Of a stretch of DNA of 64,000 bases, positions 1 through 5,064 are shown one piece after another. This DNA is from an uncultured Brevinematales bacterium (GTDB lineage: Bacteria; Spirochaetota; Brevinematia; Brevinematales; JAOACQ01). The stretch is taken from NCBI GenBank assembly GCA_964533855.1, contig CAZHNM010000011.1:6293-70292 (forward strand), in the 5' to 3' direction. The notes beneath the pieces were generated by a model, which was not told the DNA's origin, made no database searches, and saw only the letters and a list, made by a program, of their open reading frames with translations. The number at the start of each line of letters is the position of its first letter. Positions within the stretch are counted from its first letter, which is position 1. The position numbers were made by a program, and so were the translations under genes.

Positions 1-1
1 G

Positions 2-313
2 CTTTATGGCCTTGGTTTTTATACATTTTACACAGGAATGAACTCAGCGATGAATTCAAGCGGAAGCTCTCAACCAACGACATCTCCCTTCACATGGTTT
101 TTAATTGACATTGGAGCCGGCCTTGTTGTTAATATTGCCGGTGTGTTGATCGGTTCGGCAATTTATCCTTCTCGTGATGATTACAACGCCTTTATCAATA
201 AGCATAACAGGCTTGATCCGGATCATCCTCTGAAGATGGAAAAGATAACCATTCAATTAGGTTTTTTCCCTGCCCCTGACGGCGGAAATTTCGGTCTTGC
301 CTGCAGGTTTTAA
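2..313 (+). CDS. 3' end of a CDS entering from upstream of the window (hypothetical, one hydrophobic segment)
   Basis: The frame is open from base 2 with no stop, so listed ORF 38..313 is only the tail. Hydrophobic stretch FLIDIGAGLVVNIAGVLIGSAIY. A hairpin terminator follows. Confidence 0.4.
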   Translation, partial: LYGLGFYTFYTGMNSAMNSSGSSQPTTSPFTWFLIDIGAGLVVNIAGVLIGSAIYPSRDDYNAFINKHNRLDPDHPLKMEKITIQLGFFPAPDGGNFGLACRF

Positions 314-340
314 AATTGATAGATTGTTCCGTGTTCTTAA

Positions 341-388
341 AGGCCCTATGATAGTTTCATTTACGAGACCATAGGGCCTCTTTTTTTT
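341..388 (+). terminator. Rho-independent terminator
   Basis: Inverted repeat aggccctatg (341-350) / catagggcct (370-379), followed by a T8 run (381-388). Confidence 0.7.
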
Positions 389-420
389 CCTTACCCCTTA
401 ATTTAGTTGAAACACCTTGC

Positions 421-452
421 TTGACAATATTATAGTTGTGTGATACAATTGT
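421..452 (+). promoter_or_regulatory. Sigma70-type promoter of the regulator-hgcAB unit with an overlapping palindrome
   Basis: TTGACA (421-426), 17-nt spacer, TACAAT (444-449), with TG at 441-442 (extended -10). The 8-bp palindrome ACAATTGT (445-452) overlaps the -10. GGAG RBS at 474-477 precedes ATG 485. Confidence 0.65.
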
Positions 453-484
453 TGTATTAAACATTCAATAATCGGAGTAACCTG

Positions 485-931
485 ATGGATGAATTGGAGA
501 TCAGGGATTTTAGAAACGCAATCCGTGTAATCGAAAGGGAAGTGGAAAGGCAGTTTTCATCGAGCGATTGCTGCTGCGGAGTGACGGTGGGCCAATGCCA
601 CATGCTGATGGAACTTGAATCAAGGGGTGAAATGACAATAAAAGATCTTTCCCTGGCCCTGGAACTGGATAAAAGCACCCTGAGCAGGACAGCGGACGAA
701 TTATTTAAGTCTGGACTTATTGAAAGATCCGAAAATCAGAAAGACAGGAGATATACAAATATCCGGCTGACTGAACAGGGACGGAAAATTTCCGGTTCAA
801 TCAATGACATATGGAATAAAGTATATATCGATATCTTTAAATTTATACCTGGAGACAAACACTCCCCGGTTATTGAATCTTTCAAACTATTCGCGGTTGC
901 ACTGAGGAAAAACCATGAGAGAGGGGAATAA
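485..931 (+). CDS. MarR-family winged-HTH transcriptional regulator with an N-terminal Cys cluster (C29-C30-C31, C38)
   Basis: MarR-like wHTH signature (TIKDLSLALELDKSTLSRTADELFKSGLIERSENQKDRRYTNIRLTEQG). CCC codons at 569..577. Stop TAA overlaps the hgcA ATG by 1 nt (TAATG at 929-933). Confidence 0.8.
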   Translation: MDELEIRDFRNAIRVIEREVERQFSSSDCCCGVTVGQCHMLMELESRGEMTIKDLSLALELDKSTLSRTADELFKSGLIERSENQKDRRYTNIRLTEQGRKISGSINDIWNKVYIDIFKFIPGDKHSPVIESFKLFAVALRKNHERGE

Positions 932-1938
932 TGGAATATACTGAAATATCCGGCAGTAAAATTCCTTTAATATCGGCTAAACTTACCCTGGCAGACCTGC
1001 TTGGCGGCCTTATGGTCAGATTCGATATCAACAGAAATAATTATAAGGTCAGACCCGGGCTTTACGGGATCGGAAAACCCGGCCAGGACTCACCTGTTTT
1101 AGTCACGGCAAATTATAAGCTATCTTTTGATATCGTAAGAAAAAATCTCGAAGGTTTAAACGCCTGGCTGATAGTCCTCGATACAAAAGGCATCAATGTC
1201 TGGTGCGCCGCCGGAAAGGGGACTTTTGGAACTATTGAATTAGTCAAAAGGATTATTGAATCCGGGCTTGAAAAGATCGTATCTCACAGGACGGTCATAT
1301 TGCCCCAGCTTGGAGCTGTCGGCGTATCCGCTTATAAAGCCCGGATGATGACTAAGTTTAAAATCGTTTACGGCCCTGTCAGGGCGTGTGACATAAAAAA
1401 ATTCATTGCCGGCGGCATGGAAAAAGATGCCGGGATGAGCGAAGTGAGTTTTAACTGGAGGGACAGGCTTGCCGTAGCTCCGGTCGAACTGGTCCAGAGT
1501 TCGGCTCTGATAGCCGCGCTCATTATCCTGGGTGCTGTTTTCAGCCTGCCGTTCGACAAATCATATGCAGCCAGGCTGGCTCCATTGATGATCCAGTATA
1601 TCGCGGCAGTCCTCGCGGGGGTTTTTGTTTTTCCCCTTTTGCTGCCATATCTGCCCTTCAGAGCATTTTCTTTGAAAGGCGGAGTCCTGGGAATTCTCTA
1701 TTGCTTATTAATAGCATTTATATGCCATATATCTTTTTACGGGTCCCTGATAATGTCGTTTATAACGATCCCTGTAATATCATTTATAGCCATGAATTTC
1801 ACAGGTTCATCGACATTTACCAGCCAGGCCGGCGCAACACTTGAAGTAAAGAGATCCATTCCGGTAATGGCAGTTGTTTTTATTGCCGGAATATCGTTGA
1901 ATATCTTAAAAACTTTAAATATTTTAGGAGGGCATTAA
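931..1938 (+). CDS. hgcA: Mercury methylation corrinoid protein HgcA
   Basis: Contains the HgcA cap-helix motif N(V/I)WCA(A/G)GK as GINVWCAAGKG (Cys92 codon at 1204-1206). N-terminal soluble domain plus a C-terminal half with several hydrophobic helices. 335 aa. Followed by an hgcB-like ferredoxin. Confidence 0.85.
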   Translation: MEYTEISGSKIPLISAKLTLADLLGGLMVRFDINRNNYKVRPGLYGIGKPGQDSPVLVTANYKLSFDIVRKNLEGLNAWLIVLDTKGINVWCAAGKGTFGTIELVKRIIESGLEKIVSHRTVILPQLGAVGVSAYKARMMTKFKIVYGPVRACDIKKFIAGGMEKDAGMSEVSFNWRDRLAVAPVELVQSSALIAALIILGAVFSLPFDKSYAARLAPLMIQYIAAVLAGVFVFPLLLPYLPFRAFSLKGGVLGILYCLLIAFICHISFYGSLIMSFITIPVISFIAMNFTGSSTFTSQAGATLEVKRSIPVMAVVFIAGISLNILKTLNILGGH

Positions 1939-2042
1939 TACAAACGGCTATTACGGGACTCTTTCAATTGATAATAAGAATATTATTTTAATGGAATGGA
2001 TCAATGAATATTGATATTACAGGGAGCTTTAAGGAGGTGACA

Positions 2043-2318
2043 GTGGTCTGGAAATATATTAAAAATGGTGAAAGTCTTTTAATCGATGCTGATAAGTGCA
2101 CAGGTTGCGGTACCTGTTTAGAGGTTTGCCCGCATAGTGTTTTCATATTAAAGTATAAAAAGGCATTAATAAATTTAAGAGATGCCTGCATGGAATGCGG
2201 TGCCTGCAAGCTTAATTGCCCTGCAGGAGCTATCGAGGTTAATTCGGGTGTCGGATGTGCAGCAGCGGTTATAGGCGGTATGCTCGGTAAAAAGGCGCCC
2301 GACTGCGGCTGCTGTTAA
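2043..2318 (+). CDS. hgcB: Mercury methylation ferredoxin HgcB (2x[4Fe-4S])
   Basis: Two CX2CX2CX3CP motifs (CTGCGTCLEVCP, CMECGACKLNCP) and a C-terminal Cys-rich tail (DCGCC). The ORF is open from ATG 2004, but in-frame GTG 2043 sits 5 nt after AAGGAGG (2031-2037) and gives about 91 aa, typical of HgcB. Confidence 0.8.
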   Translation: MVWKYIKNGESLLIDADKCTGCGTCLEVCPHSVFILKYKKALINLRDACMECGACKLNCPAGAIEVNSGVGCAAAVIGGMLGKKAPDCGCC

Positions 2319-2324
2319 AACAAG

Positions 2325-2639
2325 ATGCTAAACGGAAGATATTGGTTAATATTTTTATTTTTATTTTTTTTCAGTTGCGGTTATTCAACAGGTCAACTGA
2401 TTTTTACGAATACATACATGTATGAAAAGCCGGATGACGGTTCAAAGATCGTTGCATCGATAAAACCCGGCACAATAGCAGACTCAAAGGGACCGATCCT
2501 TGCATCGGGAAGTAATCCGGAAGGCTGGCAGAAAATTTCATCGGCAGGTAAAACGGGATGGTGTCATGCGGAGAGTTTGCTCTCAGATCAGATCGATATA
2601 AACGATTTTACGTACGGGAAAAAGCTCGCCGGAATATAG
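2325..2639 (+). CDS. Putative lipoprotein with a bacterial SH3-like domain
   Basis: Signal/lipobox-like N-terminus (LIFLFLFFFSCG). SH3b-like ending (GWQKISSAGKTGWCHAESL). Starts 6 nt after the hgcB stop. Confidence 0.5.
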   Translation: MLNGRYWLIFLFLFFFSCGYSTGQLIFTNTYMYEKPDDGSKIVASIKPGTIADSKGPILASGSNPEGWQKISSAGKTGWCHAESLLSDQIDINDFTYGKKLAGI

Positions 2640-3298
2640 CCAGGCTGTCGATAAAAAAAACCTTAATCAGTGTCCTTTACGATGTCAGCAAGTATTCAGG
2701 AAACCCCTCTGGTTACGCCAAACAATACATCTACATGATCAGGGATGACGGTAGACTTGCCCTGATGAAAGATTTCATCTCCCAATATTATCATTTTGGA
2801 GTGCCGAACTTCGAATTTAATAAAATGTCCTGGCCGGAAACTGATATCATAGATATTTCCTACGGCTTCCAGAGGACAGGCGGATTGGCACACAACGGAG
2901 ACGGCGGCCTTATCCTGGAATATAAACTGGATAAAACAGGGATGGAATTTTTCTTATCTGATGTAAAAAGCAATATAAAAGACTCCGAAAGCAACACAGT
3001 CATCACAAACAGGGAGTCCCTTGTGGAAATTTTCCCTGAATTATCGGATATCTCGAATAAGTGCACCCGGATGAACACCTTTAAAACGAATGCGACATGC
3101 TATGTCTCTGCGCCGTCCGGCCTATATCTCCGAAAATCACCGGAGACAGGCGATAATAAAATATTCCTGATCCCTTTCAATTCGATAGTTATTATAACCG
3201 GAAAGAGCTATAACATTTATACTAACGATGGTATAACAAACTACTGGTACAGGGTTAATTATCACGGCCGGGAAGGCTGGACATTCGGGGGATATTAA
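2558..3298 (+). CDS. Hypothetical protein with a C-terminal SH3b-like domain (start uncertain)
   Basis: C-terminal NYWYRVNYHGREGWTFGGY. The first 82 nt overlap the preceding ORF in another frame. The next in-frame ATG is at 2735, so either the start is internal or the two ORFs are one frameshifted gene. Confidence 0.45.
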   Translation: MVSCGEFALRSDRYKRFYVREKARRNIARLSIKKTLISVLYDVSKYSGNPSGYAKQYIYMIRDDGRLALMKDFISQYYHFGVPNFEFNKMSWPETDIIDISYGFQRTGGLAHNGDGGLILEYKLDKTGMEFFLSDVKSNIKDSESNTVITNRESLVEIFPELSDISNKCTRMNTFKTNATCYVSAPSGLYLRKSPETGDNKIFLIPFNSIVIITGKSYNIYTNDGITNYWYRVNYHGREGWTFGGY

Positions 3299-3387
3299 AA
3301 GAAGAGCTATAACCTTGAATTTATTTTCATCGTTCCTTACAACATTCAGGTGTGTTATTTCAGGCTTATTGAAACCCGGAAAGTCAG

Positions 3388-3407
3388 CAGGCATTGCCTG
3401 ATTTTTT
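3388..3407 (+). terminator. Weak hairpin terminator
   Basis: caggc-att-gcctg stem-loop (3388-3400), followed by a T6 run (3402-3407). Confidence 0.4.
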
Positions 3408-3482
3408 GTGTTTATTCATCCTTTTGAATAAAATAATTGAATATTTTCCATTGATAATAAAATAAGTTCATAGGATGATTTA

Positions 3483-4217
3483 ATGATAGAAAAAAATTAT
3501 TGGCTTTCCGATGCCGGCAAAGACCAGATTGCTTTTTATTTAGAGGAATCGGATGAATTTTTAGTGGAAAGAAAAACCGCTCTGGAATTGATGTTATCGA
3601 TAGCAGGCTGGAATTTTAAAGGAAGGAATAATCTAAAGCTTTTAGATCTTGGCTGCGGAAGTGGCGTAGTTTCTAAAATATTTGCATCAGTCAACCCGGA
3701 ATTTCATTTTACTCTATTAGATGGATCGCAGGATATGCTTGAAGCCGCGGCAAAGAATATGAAGAGTTTTCATTGTGACTATATTCAAACATCCTTTGAG
3801 AAATGGATAGCCGAAGATGCGAACGATCAGAGTTTTGATTTTATTTATTCTGGTATGGCCATTCATCACTTAGATTATACACAAAAACAGCTTCTCTATG
3901 GACGTGTTTATAGGGAACTTCAATTTGGCGGACTATTCCTCAATTATGATGTGGTATTGCCTGCATCCGAACAGTCGGAAAAATGGCAGTTCCAGATGTG
4001 GCGGGACTGGATTAACAATAATATAGAAAAACTCGGGAAATCCGAATTTATTGGTAAACACAATAATATGCCGGAAGAAACTTATAAAATGAAAGCGGAA
4101 AACAAACCTTCCCTATTAAGGGACAATCTAGATATGCTTGAAAAATCAGGGTTTCGTGATGTGGATGTATTCATGAAACATGGGATTTTCGTTTTATACG
4201 GCGGGACAAAACCCTGA
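3483..4217 (+). CDS. Class I SAM-dependent methyltransferase
   Basis: Motif I LLDLGCGSGVVS plus post-I/II pattern (FDFIYSGMAIHHL). 244 aa, TGA stop. Confidence 0.8.
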   Translation: MIEKNYWLSDAGKDQIAFYLEESDEFLVERKTALELMLSIAGWNFKGRNNLKLLDLGCGSGVVSKIFASVNPEFHFTLLDGSQDMLEAAAKNMKSFHCDYIQTSFEKWIAEDANDQSFDFIYSGMAIHHLDYTQKQLLYGRVYRELQFGGLFLNYDVVLPASEQSEKWQFQMWRDWINNNIEKLGKSEFIGKHNNMPEETYKMKAENKPSLLRDNLDMLEKSGFRDVDVFMKHGIFVLYGGTKP

Positions 4218-4266
4218 AACCCTGAATCCTTGGCAATTCTAACACCAACCTGCTCCCCGGTCCATC

Positions 4267-5064
4267 TCATGTGGTCAGACTGTCGACATAGGCGAAGACC
4301 CGATCTTGGTCGGCTTCAACACGAGCCCCGCGAGAGGGTATTGCTGATTTTCGGCCCACCGTCTGATAGAGCGCTGTGCCGGGATCCATGATTACGGCTG
4401 CAAGTGAAGCTCCCGCTGCTTGGGTGCTTTGGAATACCGTAGCCCTGAGTAATTTCAGGATCCAGGAGGGAACTTGGTTGGCGGGAACGACCATCTTCGG
4501 ATGAAAAGCCCGGACCAGGATGCCGTCGGAAGCCCATCTTCGCGCCATGGATAGTGTGAACATTAGAAAGGCCCGCTTGGCCTGAGGGTAGTCAGCCTGG
4601 TTAAGAGAGCCGGTCTCCAGGGCGGCAACGGCAAATTCCCCCCTGGACTCTCCAATTGAGCTTGTATTCACAACCACTGCTCCTGGCGGCAGGACTGGAC
4701 GTAGCCTGAGGCAAATCTGTGCCGGTGCCAGGAAGTTGACTCTCCGGTTCAGAGACCGGCCTTCTGCATCGGCCTGCTTCGAGGGGAATACCGCTCCTGC
4801 GTTATTGACCAGGGCGTCCACCCGGGGATATCGTGCCTTTACCGTTTCAACAAAGTTTTGGGTTGACTCCGGATTGGACAGATCCCCCGGGATCAGATCG
4901 ACTTTGAGGCCGGGATGCTCCCCGGCGAGCCTATTAGCCAGACTCATGCCCCGTTCGGGGGTCCTGACCATCAGGACGAGAGTATCGGCGGAAGCCGCCA
5001 GATATCGGGCTGCCTCCAATCCGAAACCATGAGTAGCGCCAGTCATTACGATCGTAGGTTTCAT
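4267..5064 (-). CDS. Short-chain dehydrogenase/reductase (SDR) family oxidoreductase
   Basis: N-terminal Rossmann motif TGATHGFGLEAARYL, NNAG motif (LVNNAGAV) and YxxxK-like YPQAK. Markedly GC-richer than both flanks. Confidence 0.85.
   Translation of the reverse strand: MKPTIVMTGATHGFGLEAARYLAASADTLVLMVRTPERGMSLANRLAGEHPGLKVDLIPGDLSNPESTQNFVETVKARYPRVDALVNNAGAVFPSKQADAEGRSLNRRVNFLAPAQICLRLRPVLPPGAVVVNTSSIGESRGEFAVAALETGSLNQADYPQAKRAFLMFTLSMARRWASDGILVRAFHPKMVVPANQVPSWILKLLRATVFQSTQAAGASLAAVIMDPGTALYQTVGRKSAIPSRGARVEADQDRVFAYVDSLTT

Follow-up and report, generated by a model that had tools for sequence, protein, structure and literature searches.

The MarR-type protein AdMarR_ars (Achromobacter deleyi As-55) occupies its own promoter until As(III) or Sb(III) releases it and, as judged by mutagenesis, depends on Cys36, Cys37 and Cys157 for this response (Yu et al., 2021, bioRxiv 10.1101/2021.08.12.456183). 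The control of the mercury-methylation genes hgcAB, and their true function, are open questions in mercury biogeochemistry, and tests have so far been confined to one regulator, of the ArsR type, from a single Desulfovibrionales strain. That protein, the four-Cys ArsR/SmtB-type ArsR2 (DND132_1054), controls hgcAB in Pseudodesulfovibrio mercurii ND132, where the reported response is to arsenic and SAH (Gionfriddo et al., bioRxiv 10.1101/2022.10.17.512643). Two isolates have been noted to carry MarR genes ahead of hgcA (Zhang et al., 2023, PMC10349881), and an unnamed 'putative transcriptional regulator' was reported upstream of hgcAB in 112 genomes, one of them Opitutae (McDaniel et al., 2020, PMC7438021). 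Here, we describe a marR-hgcA-hgcB gene row in a 64,000-nucleotide stretch of DNA (the window) from a Spirochaetota/Brevinematales-like host, together with its relatives in other genomes. On balance, we think it probable that these genes form an autoregulated operon whose repressor is released by a thiophilic metal(loid).

Results

All features mapped between 341 and 3410 lie on the plus strand of the window. The product of hgcA (931-1938; 335 aa) scored 393.9 bits against the NCBIfam HgcA_corrinoid profile NF040863 (cut-off 275) in a profile search, and its cap helix GINVWCAAGKG (1189-1221), which holds the cobalt-ligating Cys92 (codon 1204-1206), fits the pattern N(V/I)WCA(A/G)GK; the motif is common to all aligned linked HgcA homologues (57/57). 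Hydropathy shows a C-terminal membrane domain of about five hydrophobic or transmembrane segments at residues 190-328. These results bear out the first-pass annotation, which had seen an HgcA cap-helix motif on a corrinoid-domain protein with a transmembrane part, followed by a 2x[4Fe-4S] ferredoxin with the Cys tail of HgcB. The latter is encoded by hgcB (2043-2318; 91 aa), which matches NCBIfam HgcB_ferredoxin NF040864 at 110.5 bits (cut-off 99) and carries Cys19/22/25/29 and Cys49/52/55/59 (2x CX2CX2CX3C), an extra Cys72 and C-terminal Cys88/90/91 in a C-G-C-C tail. The hgcB start codon is most likely GTG 2043 rather than ATG 2004, given the spacing of the ribosome-binding site AAGGAGG (2031-2037, 5 nt upstream), the start of the NCBIfam profile match, which begins at residue 17 of the long ORF from ATG 2004, and the equivalent start codon of the homologue at locus L002; with this start, 104 nt separate the hgcA stop from hgcB.

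An assignment of HgcA to the fused HgcAB-like proteins or the CFeSP paralogs was ruled out by scores below cut-off, at 198 bits against the non-methylating HgcAB_like fusion model (cut-off 285) and 77 bits against the CFeSP gamma model PRK04165 (cut-off 306). Judged by these profiles, the window genes are a bona fide hgcAB pair that groups with methylating HgcA/HgcB equivalogs, and their host is a putative Hg methylator; this assignment and the pair themselves are ordinary.

Six nucleotides past the hgcB stop lie two overlapping ORFs (2325-2639 and 2558-3298) with weak Pfam SH3_3 matches, which are possibly co-transcribed passengers outside the conserved unit; no SH3-type genes were found 3' of hgcB in the homologous loci L001 or L002. 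The transcription unit may end at a terminator-like hairpin with a T-run (3388-3410), the first non-coding one past the promoter in a consensus scan. The 64-kb window gave no match in Rfam and tRNA scans.

Directly upstream of hgcA is a regulator gene (485-931; 148 aa; Shine-Dalgarno GGAG 474-477) whose product matches Pfam MarR PF01047 at 52.4 bits (cut-off 24.6). Its AlphaFold2 model, computed as a monomer (pLDDT 90.9), has the canonical MarR topology, comprising helices a1-a6 plus a beta wing, and its top Foldseek matches are YusO, AdcR, PefR and MexR. The protein also matches 121 PDB MarR chains at E<=1e-3. The earlier description of this gene as a MarR-type winged-helix protein is therefore upheld, and we class it as a MarR_ars-like variant. 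Membership in ArsR/SmtB was rejected, with 19.1 bits against Pfam HTH_5 PF01022 (cut-off 22) and 17.6 bits against NCBIfam NF033788 (cut-off 55).

The intrinsic terminator of the gene upstream of the regulator (341-388; hairpin 341-379, U-tract 381-388) has an RNA fold of -21.6 kcal/mol (z = -5.7), a stability reached by none of 200 shuffles, and is predicted to shield the hgc unit against read-through. It is followed by a sigma-70-type promoter (421-449) with the -35 element TTGACA (421-426), a 17-nt spacer and a TG-extended -10 element TACAAT (444-449); at 11/12 consensus matches it is the best promoter-like site within positions 1-4400, and the near-consensus TTGACA-17-TACAAT of the first-pass annotation stands. 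Two palindromes overlap this promoter. Palindrome 1, GTTGTGTGATACAAT (435-449), agrees with GTTGTA-N3-TACAAC at 10/12 positions and its right half is the -10 element, while palindrome 2, GTTGTATTAAACATT (451-465), agrees at 9/12 positions, lies 16 nt downstream and overlies the likely transcription start; an inverted repeat (437-448/452-463) spans both. The palindrome ACAATTGT had earlier been singled out at the -10 element. A conserved palindromic operator is indeed found there, but ACAATTGT is only the junction of 435-449 and 451-465, and as the operator itself it was replaced by the two conserved 15-bp palindromes that flank this junction.

The same arrangement marks the family, whose operator is a tandem of 15-bp palindromes (GTTGTA-N3-TACAAC) at a spacing of 16 nt that overlaps the -10 element and the likely start. 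Of 62 upstream regions linked to hgcA, 49 hold a match of at least 10/12, compared with 6 of 4685 random 143-nt windows. A pair of sites spaced by exactly 16 nt occurs in 55 of 79 upstream regions of the family, compared with 2 of 4679 random windows. Among relatives, the first site begins 14 nt past the start of TTGAC in 45 cases, so that its right half is the -10 element. The operator was also found before family members that lack hgcA and before the C. felsineum ars-island gene. A search of the 64-kb window for a wider regulon yielded one extra operator match (42351, two mismatches), no more than chance would give (0.81 expected). We propose that two MarR dimers, one per 15-bp palindrome, would occupy the regulator's own promoter. 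As the -10 element and the likely start site lie within the palindromes, RNA polymerase would be kept out, and both the regulator and hgcAB would be repressed rather than activated.

This layout recurs in other genomes. Among the 80 most similar regulator loci in GTDB species representatives, hgcA lies directly downstream on the same strand in 63, a fraction that gives no estimate of the regulator's frequency among hgcAB loci, because the set was retrieved partly with a pattern containing the Cys motif and comprises only the matches most similar to the query. None of the 63 linked loci has a gene between regulator and hgcA, and hgcB then follows in all but two, both cut by contig ends; 2 of the 17 remaining loci are likewise interrupted by contig ends. 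The linked loci span at least seven phylum-level groups, with taxa given by record as Spirochaetota, Calditrichia, KSB1, delta-proteobacteria/Syntrophorhabdus, Bacillota, Wallbacteria, Opitutales and Cytophagia. Family members occur in soda-lake Syntrophomonadaceae MAGs (L017, L033), in Ca. Contubernalis (L088) and at an Opitutales locus (L060), and a homology search with a soda-lake Syntrophomonadaceae member returned Ca. Contubernalis alkalaceticus and MAGs only, and no Dethiobacter-named protein. Pairwise identities of regulator and HgcA are correlated (Spearman 0.26), a value reached in 0 of 999 Mantel permutations. The window arrangement is not a product of chance, as dozens of independent genomes have the gene order, Cys motif and operator in common.

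The TAATG overlap of regulator and hgcA noted at first pass is present in the window (929-933), where the hgcA start ATG 931-933 overlaps the regulator stop TAA 929-931, but a stop/start overlap of this kind is found in just 15 of the 63 linked loci; overlaps or gaps of at most 30 nt account for 31 of the 63. From this layout, the regulator probably shares a transcription unit with hgcAB. An alternative is that the regulator controls only itself or acts elsewhere, with hgcAB effectively constitutive and the adjacency that of a hitch-hiking cassette. It is true that hgcAB is often called constitutively expressed, and that 29 of the 32 loci with a gap of about 40 nt or more have no second operator-like site before hgcA (a second operator or promoter at this position found no support, with a weak match in 3/32). 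The absent second operator, however, fits one promoter and a polycistronic transcript, about which the close spacing in 31/63 loci, the strong terminator before the promoter with none between the window genes, the order and strand conserved across phyla, and the co-variation of regulator and HgcA all agree. We therefore regard hitch-hiking as very improbable and keep to an operon with a shared, autoregulated promoter.

The regulator carries a Cys cluster, C29-C30-C31-G-V-T-V-G-Q-C38-H39 (569-601), where the alpha1-alpha2 loop leads into the first turn of alpha2. The CCC-x6-C motif of the first-pass annotation is found at the codons it gave for C29-C31 (569-577), with C38 at 596-598, although the AlphaFold2 model places the cluster about 14 residues ahead of the HTH and not adjoining the DNA-binding helix. 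Its emphasis on a Cys triad also needs narrowing, since the cluster is conserved in the family but CCC is confined to the small clade of the window protein: the family core is C30 and Q37-C38-H39 plus a neighbouring Cys, usually with a C-terminal Cys as well. Of the best 150 cluster representatives at 50% identity, 145 carry C30, 142 carry C38 and 135 carry H39, and the near-invariance of these residues also holds in an HMM search free of motif words, which marks the cluster, at the level of sequence, as a family-conserved feature and not Cys codons run together by chance. Of 123 members with the xCC motif, 118 have a C-terminal Cys, as do 120 of the 150 representatives, whereas the window protein has no Cys beyond residue 38, and its clade is a variant with the CCC triad and without the C-terminal Cys. 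The association of CCC with C-terminal Cys loss has p = 4e-6 in the redundant set, with few clades behind it, and at the level of 50%-identity representatives stands at just 4/10 versus 12/99. In the window clade, the third adjacent Cys, C29, apparently takes the place of the C-terminal Cys found in most relatives.

The metal sites of AdcR and ZitR draw on the alpha1-alpha2 loop together with the N-terminus of alpha2. By analogy, a Cys3His cluster might hold Zn(II) as a structural or co-repressor metal, or else Fe-S, with the metal form binding DNA and loss of the cofactor (by starvation, O2 or NO) inducing hgcAB. AdcR was the second-best structural match, the NCBIfam AdcR_fam_Zn_TF model matches the same region weakly, and the near-invariance of C30, C38 and H39 suits a Cys/His Zn site. 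That match, though, is at 30.3 bits far below the family cut-off of 175, the fourth ligand varies (C29, C31 or a C-terminal Cys), which suits the evolutionarily mobile S3 As(III) sites better than a fixed structural site, and the neighbouring genes are those of metalloid resistance, not of Zn or Fe homeostasis, so that a structural or starvation-sensing cofactor is quite improbable. The most reasonable reading of the cluster is, by analogy, a thiophilic-metal(loid) sensing site, because its relatives stand in arsenic gene clusters and the published MarR_ars subfamily responds to As(III) and Sb(III).

Those relatives were found in the following settings. Family members without hgcA adjoin ArsM (366 bits), ArsN2 (140-160 bits, cut-off 125), C-GCAxxG-C-C genes and methyltransferases. 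The C. felsineum p337 row reads MarR, ArsN1-like GNAT, C-GCAxxG, ArsR, Acr3, ArsC, ArsD and ArsA, and a Deinococcus aetherius cluster holds ArsR, ArsC, an aquaporin, MarR and ArsN2. The arsN2-linked Deinococcus MarR, which served as a proxy for AdMarR_ars and was chosen by its fit to the published description, has CC, QC and C-terminal CGC placed as described for Cys36/37/157 of that protein; it shares 29% identity with the window regulator (E 3e-19), and the CC and QC residues align. No ars homologue was found in the 64 kb of the window itself, and most hgcA-linked loci show none within 6 kb.

Since the regulated genes act on Hg, one might expect Hg(II) or methylmercury to be the inducer, in the manner of a MerR-like mercury sensor built on a MarR scaffold. 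Three to four thiolates would make an excellent Hg(II) site, and most family members carry a flexible, HgcB-like CC tail at the C-terminus. The members without hgcA nonetheless accompany arsenic genes, with no mer neighbours among those examined, and in ND132 the response was to arsenic and SAH. Expression of hgcAB and methylation are generally not known to be Hg-inducible. Mercury as the inducing ligand is, in our judgement, rather unlikely.

Cys-based redox sensing is widespread in the MarR family, and a thiol switch of the OhrR, MexR or HypR/QsrR type would release the repressor when oxidants or electrophiles form a disulfide or S-adduct, making redox stress the cue. MexR is among the structural neighbours, disulfides are possible between the vicinal or nearby Cys, and the recurrent partner C-GCAxxG-C-C is annotated as a 'putative redox-active protein'. 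Still, the relatives without hgcA adjoin ArsM, ArsN2 and ars islands and not peroxidase or quinone-detoxification genes, the related subfamily was shown to respond to As(III) and Sb(III) through its Cys, and the hosts are mostly MAGs of groups that we take to be anaerobes, which makes a redox cue unlikely.

For metal(loid) release, the preferred reading, soft ligands from C29/C30/C31, C38 and H39 at the alpha1-alpha2 junction would bind a thiophilic metal(loid), most probably As(III)/Sb(III) or an organoarsenical by analogy with MarR_ars and possibly Hg(II), and the ligand-bound regulator would leave the DNA and allow induction of hgcAB.

Discussion

A broader reading, which we offer tentatively, is that a large, multi-phylum share of hgcAB belongs to the metalloid-responsive regulon of a MarR_ars-like clade, alongside C-GCAxxG-C-C, ArsM and ArsN, and that the native role of HgcAB is in arsenic or soft-metalloid chemistry. 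If true, the unrelated ArsR-type regulator of Desulfovibrionales would do the same job, and this convergence of two families would point to a selected role for HgcAB in such chemistry; HgcAB might move methyl groups to or from a metalloid, or protect against organoarsenicals, and mercury methylation would be a side reaction; arsenic exposure in the field would then gate methylmercury production. A second winged-helix family beside hgcAB, distinct from ArsR/SmtB, kept with these genes across many phyla and with relatives in arsenic gene clusters, lends independent support to the connection between arsenic and hgcAB. Because the same regulator and operator are found in dozens of species, and the nearest relatives would control arsenic-resistance genes, the question of what switches hgcAB on becomes testable with an operator of 45 bp, five residues that are candidate ligands and a natural variant whose ligand set seems to have been exchanged. 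Should this be confirmed, the regulator might serve as a marker for predicting when methylators in the environment turn on hgcAB.

Comparison with known systems

Like ArsR2 of ND132, the window regulator is a small, Cys-rich winged-helix protein encoded directly upstream of hgcAB. ArsR2 is co-transcribed with hgcAB and its arsenic link is experimental; the window protein belongs to another family with other Cys positions, and its family has a broader taxonomic range in our sample. AdcR and ZitR are MarR-family metal sensors and close structural neighbours of the window model, but they have His/Glu-rich Zn sites with the metal as co-repressor, and the window protein scores 30.3 against a cut-off of 175. 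The regulators reported by McDaniel et al. (PMC7438021) and Zhang et al. (PMC10349881) have the same position relative to hgcAB as the window family, and neither report names a subfamily, Cys motif or operator; matched by position and taxa, they probably belong to the same family. The first-pass annotation had called a MarR-type regulator of hgcA a different regulatory solution. It is different in being of the MarR fold and not ArsR, but a MarR gene upstream of hgcA has a precedent (PMC10349881) and the type resembles MarR_ars. MarR beside hgcA had been mentioned in passing, but its link to MarR_ars, its Cys pattern and its operator seem not to have been described before.

With MarR_ars, the window regulator shares the MarR fold, the autoregulatory layout of a regulator placed first in its operon, relatives that adjoin arsN, arsM and ars islands, and a vicinal C30-C31 before alpha2 that aligns with the CC of the Deinococcus proxy, AdMarR_ars itself being compared by description; the C-terminal Cys is kept in most hgcAB-linked relatives. 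The window protein differs in lacking an equivalent of Cys157, with a third adjacent Cys instead, and for want of this C-terminal Cys its site cannot match that of AdMarR_ars exactly. Its operon holds hgcAB, where those of MarR_ars hold arsV/arsN/arsP, and the near-invariant Q-C38-H39 of its family is not mentioned by Yu et al. The strictly conserved C38-H39 hints that the chemistry could be another one, for instance that of a Zn site of the Cys3His type, of a bound Fe-S cluster or of a thiol switch.

Genes and conservation of the hgc unit

The regulator, hgcA and hgcB form a conserved unit. Positions 1-3600 of the window were read with all ORFs listed, and the three genes lie on the same strand: the regulator (485-931; 148 aa; Pfam MarR 52.4 bits, cut-off 24.6), hgcA (931-1938; 335 aa; NCBIfam HgcA equivalog 393.9 bits, cut-off 275) and the ferredoxin ORF hgcB (ending at 2318; HgcB model 110.5 bits, cut-off 99). 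HgcA scores below the cut-off of the non-methylating HgcAB-like fusion model (198 against 285) and far under that of the CFeSP gamma model; being above the equivalog cut-off and under those of the paralogs, it does not group with the latter by profile score, and the first-pass annotation's call of a genuine hgcA is borne out. GINVWCAAGKG (Cys codon 1204-1206) is present in the protein, whose C-terminal part has about five hydrophobic segments, and HgcB carries two CX2CX2CX3C motifs, an extra Cys and a C-G-C-C tail. As that annotation had also read, the regulator stop and hgcA start overlap in TAATG (929-933), the hgcA ATG sharing the A of the preceding TAA. Translation of hgcB likely starts at GTG 2043, to judge from the AAGGAGG ahead of it; ATG 2004 is the less likely start, as the profile and the homologue in L002 both begin at GTG 2043 instead. 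At 104 nt (1939-2042), the window's hgcA-hgcB spacer is unusually long; of the two closest relatives, locus L001 has a 127-aa hydrophobic ORF between the genes (L001:7478-7861) and L002 a gap of 2 nt. The hgcAB pair itself is not new, and a putative methylator of Spirochaetota type is nothing unusual.

Two SH3-domain ORFs begin 6 nt past hgcB and are not conserved in L001 and L002. Their frames differ and their ends overlap (2325-2639 and 2558-3298), JGI gene calls here are shorter, and the pair could be two genes or a single lipoprotein gene (2325-3298) with a frameshift. A class I SAM methyltransferase gene lies downstream of the unit (3483-4217); its product matches the CpaM ('corrinoid protein-associated methyltransferase') model weakly and below threshold (42.6 bits, cut-off 180).

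Relatives of the regulator, which share the stretch C-C-G-V-T-V-x-Q-C-H in homology searches, were sought in one genome per GTDB species, yielding 146, and the analysis went on with the best 80; hgcA and hgcB near them were found by tblastn with the window HgcA and HgcB. Among these best 80 of 146 loci, hgcA is directly downstream of the regulator on the same strand in 63, a count that describes the regulator's near relatives, not hgcAB loci generally, because one of the two retrieval patterns includes the Cys motif and only the matches most similar to the query were retained. All but 2 of the hgcA-linked loci have hgcB after hgcA, and those 2 are cut by contig ends; similarly, in 2 of the 17 loci without hgcA the contig ends just after the regulator. 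Database records place the loci in Spirochaetota, Leptospirales, Calditrichia, KSB1, delta-proteobacteria, Syntrophorhabdus, Wallbacteria, Opitutales, Cytophagia and Bacillota/Clostridia/Syntrophomonadaceae. In our ORF calls, 15 of the 63 linked loci have regulator and hgcA overlapping, 16 have them at most 30 nt apart and the rest 40-240 nt apart; no gene lies between them in any. A rival reading is that this adjacency has no meaning; across locus pairs, regulator identity rises with HgcA identity, a weak but significant correlation (Spearman 0.26; 0/999 permutations), as expected if both genes travel together. The closed genome of Ca. Contubernalis alkalaceticus (CP054699.1) has the same regulator-hgcA layout, with an hgcA that looks truncated beside a transposase and may be disrupted; the order there (L088:3001-4972) is regulator, an overlapping 257-aa CdhD-domain ORF, a 198-aa ORF without domain match, and transposase. 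An exhaustive HMM search put the size of the family at 376 clusters (50% identity, E<=1e-30).

Promoter and operator

The terminator of the upstream gene, a strong hairpin with U8 (341-388; -21.6 kcal/mol, z = -5.7), is followed by TTGACA (421) and TACAAT (449) at 17-nt spacing with a TG extension. The near-consensus promoter claimed earlier matches at 11/12 positions and was the best promoter-like site of the first 4.4 kb in a scan. GGAG stands 7 nt ahead of the regulator ATG, and the scan found no intergenic terminator-like element after the promoter before 3388-3400.

Upstream regions of the family share the layout TTGACA, about 8 nt, (A)GTTGTA-TAA-TACAAY, T, GTTGTA-TAA-TACAAC. The 15-bp palindrome GTTGTA-N3-TACAAC occurs at >=10/12 positions in 49/62 hgcA-linked upstream regions and in 6/4685 random 143-nt windows of the same loci, and paired palindromes exactly 16 nt apart occur in 55/79 upstream regions vs 2/4679 random windows. 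Counted from the start of TTGACA, palindrome 1 most often begins at 14 nt, so that the -10 hexamer forms its right half. In the window, site 1 (GTTGTGTGATACAAT, 435-449) and site 2 (451-465) fit this architecture exactly relative to the TTGACA at 421, and an inverted repeat was also detected here. A palindromic region at the -10 had been proposed and is conserved, but the palindrome named, ACAATTGT (445-452), is only the junction of the two 15-bp sites. The same operator precedes family members without hgcAB and the homologue in the Clostridium felsineum ars island. A second operator is generally missing from the longer regulator-hgcA gaps, of which 3 in 32 hold a weak match; this fits a single promoter.

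An operator placed over the -10 and start site is the arrangement classically seen in repression by occlusion. In the best-supported mechanism, the apo-repressor would sit on the two tandem palindromes, covering these elements of its own promoter, and hold down the marR-hgcA-hgcB transcript. The operon architecture and its conservation are observed; DNA binding, the direction of control and the ligand of the window regulator are inferred. An autoregulated operon with a GTTGTA-N3-TACAAC operator is highly probable.

Cysteine site and candidate inducer

The regulator was modelled with AlphaFold2 (pLDDT 90.9) and shows canonical MarR topology. Model confidence is lowest for the alpha1-alpha2 loop (residues 26-34), where C29-C31 lie; the opening turn of alpha2 holds C38-H39. 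C38 and H39 each occur in 200 of 203 non-identical family members, and nearly all have Cys at position 30, with a second Cys at 31 (n=123), 29 (n=52) or both (n=12). The best 150 representatives at 50% identity in the HMM search have C30 in 145, C38 in 142, H39 in 135 and a C-terminal-tail Cys in 120. CCC together with loss of the C-terminal Cys marks the clade of the window regulator, L001, L002 and family members P0003 and P0005. The Cys cluster noticed in the first-pass annotation is therefore a conserved family site, since C30, C38 and H39 are family-wide, while its CCC triad is a variant of that broader site specific to the clade. The C-terminal Cys is absent from 7/12 CCC vs 5/123 xCC proteins (Fisher p = 4e-6), an enrichment that is weaker in a less redundant set (4/10 CCC vs 12/99). 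These sequence patterns may reflect a ligand swap at a metal site, with CCC taking over from the C-terminal Cys, but few lineages lie behind them.

The dimer interface and the DNA-binding lobes of MarR proteins are coupled through the alpha1-alpha2 junction. The repressor would be released when the thiolate cluster at this junction takes up a soft metal(loid). Rival readings take the cluster for a thiol-redox switch, or for a structural or co-repressor Zn or Fe-S site; structural neighbours of the regulator are ordinary MarR proteins, the metal sensor AdcR among them.

Gene context ties the family to arsenic. In loci without hgcA, the gene adjoining the regulator encodes ArsM in L014 (366 bits, cut-off 263) and ArsN2 in L013 and L054; in L074 and L080 ArsN2 is one gene further, past a C-GCAxxG-C-C gene (ArsN2 matches 140-160 bits, cut-off 125). 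The neighbour is a methyltransferase and/or C-GCAxxG-C-C gene in L027, L061, L070, L071, L072, L074 and L080. The best match among annotated plasmids, C. felsineum p337 (37% identity), has the order MarR, ArsN1-like GNAT, C-GCAxxG-C-C, ArsR, Acr3, ArsC, ArsD, ArsA, and its MarR carries C-S-G-V-T..Q-C-H and a C-terminal Cys. Deinococcus aetherius pDAETH-3 has ArsR, ArsC, aquaporin, MarR, ArsN2; this MarR (29% identity, E 3e-19) has CC 35-36 and Q-C 43-44, which align with window C30-C31 and Q37-C38, and a C-terminal C-G-C (157-159). In a rough neighbour-joining tree, C-GCAxxG/ArsN2-linked members cluster together next to the large hgcA-linked group, and a few ars-linked members fall among Bacillota hgcA-linked regulators.

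Hg(II) as the true inducer is the rival to arsenic. ArsC-like or Acr3-like genes lie within a few kb in a minority of hgcA-linked loci, and none was found in the 64-kb window. An As(III)/Sb(III)-type inducer has about an even chance, and the whole statement of autoregulated operon, operator and such an inducer is somewhat favoured.

Several side observations concern these neighbours. ArsC-like genes stand about 0.2-0.5 kb past hgcB on the opposite strand in L008, L011, L028 and L039, and Acr3-like genes occur at L045:1217-2242 and L076:9305-10459. C-GCAxxG-C-C genes (annotated 'putative redox-active') recur with the regulator family: directly 3' of hgcB in 8 hgcA-linked loci (L020:7807-8238, L055:5635-6066, L026, L036, L047, L052, L056, L058), just downstream of the regulator, directly or past a methyltransferase gene, in 7 hgcA-less loci (including L027:7298-7786, L061:7099-7548, L070:2346-2744 and L074:2898-3434), and inside the C. 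felsineum ars island (L083:4962-5393), between the ArsN1-like GNAT and arsR-acr3-arsC-arsD-arsA. This recurrence points to a role in metalloid or hgcAB-related chemistry. A Paraburkholderia plasmid (L090:2956-3957) encodes a distant relative (28% identity) that bears the annotation 'bifunctional HTH regulator/GNAT N-acetyltransferase' as one protein and is possibly a fusion of MarR-ArsN type.

Comparison with known systems

The interest of the conserved regulator-operator-hgcAB module lies in its breadth and precision, and it gives independent support for an arsenic-hgcAB link. In P. mercurii ND132, hgcAB is controlled by an ArsR-type regulator with four Cys, whose response is to arsenic and SAH (bioRxiv 10.1101/2022.10.17.512643), and an unnamed 'putative transcriptional regulator' was reported immediately upstream of hgcAB in 112 genomes (McDaniel et al., PMC7438021). 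Two isolates with a MarR gene ahead of hgcA have also been mentioned (Zhang et al., 2023; PMC10349881). Within incomplete full-text coverage of the literature, no report was found that joins the hgcAB-linked MarR to MarR_ars, the As(III)/Sb(III)-responsive MarR subfamily, or gives its Cys motif or operator. The Achromobacter member AdMarR_ars has conserved Cys36, Cys37 and Cys157 and binds its own and the arsV promoters. As(III)/Sb(III) releases it, and replacing any one of these Cys abolishes the response; the same study (Yu et al., 2021; bioRxiv 10.1101/2021.08.12.456183) also listed homologues upstream of arsN, among them genes of Deinococcus and Clostridium. The ars-linked members of our family and the Cys layout of the Deinococcus aetherius protein fit this subfamily, whereas the window regulator has neither a C-terminal Cys nor an ars context, two of the features by which the subfamily is defined, and is therefore not classed as a member. 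By analogy, it may work like a MarR_ars repressor.
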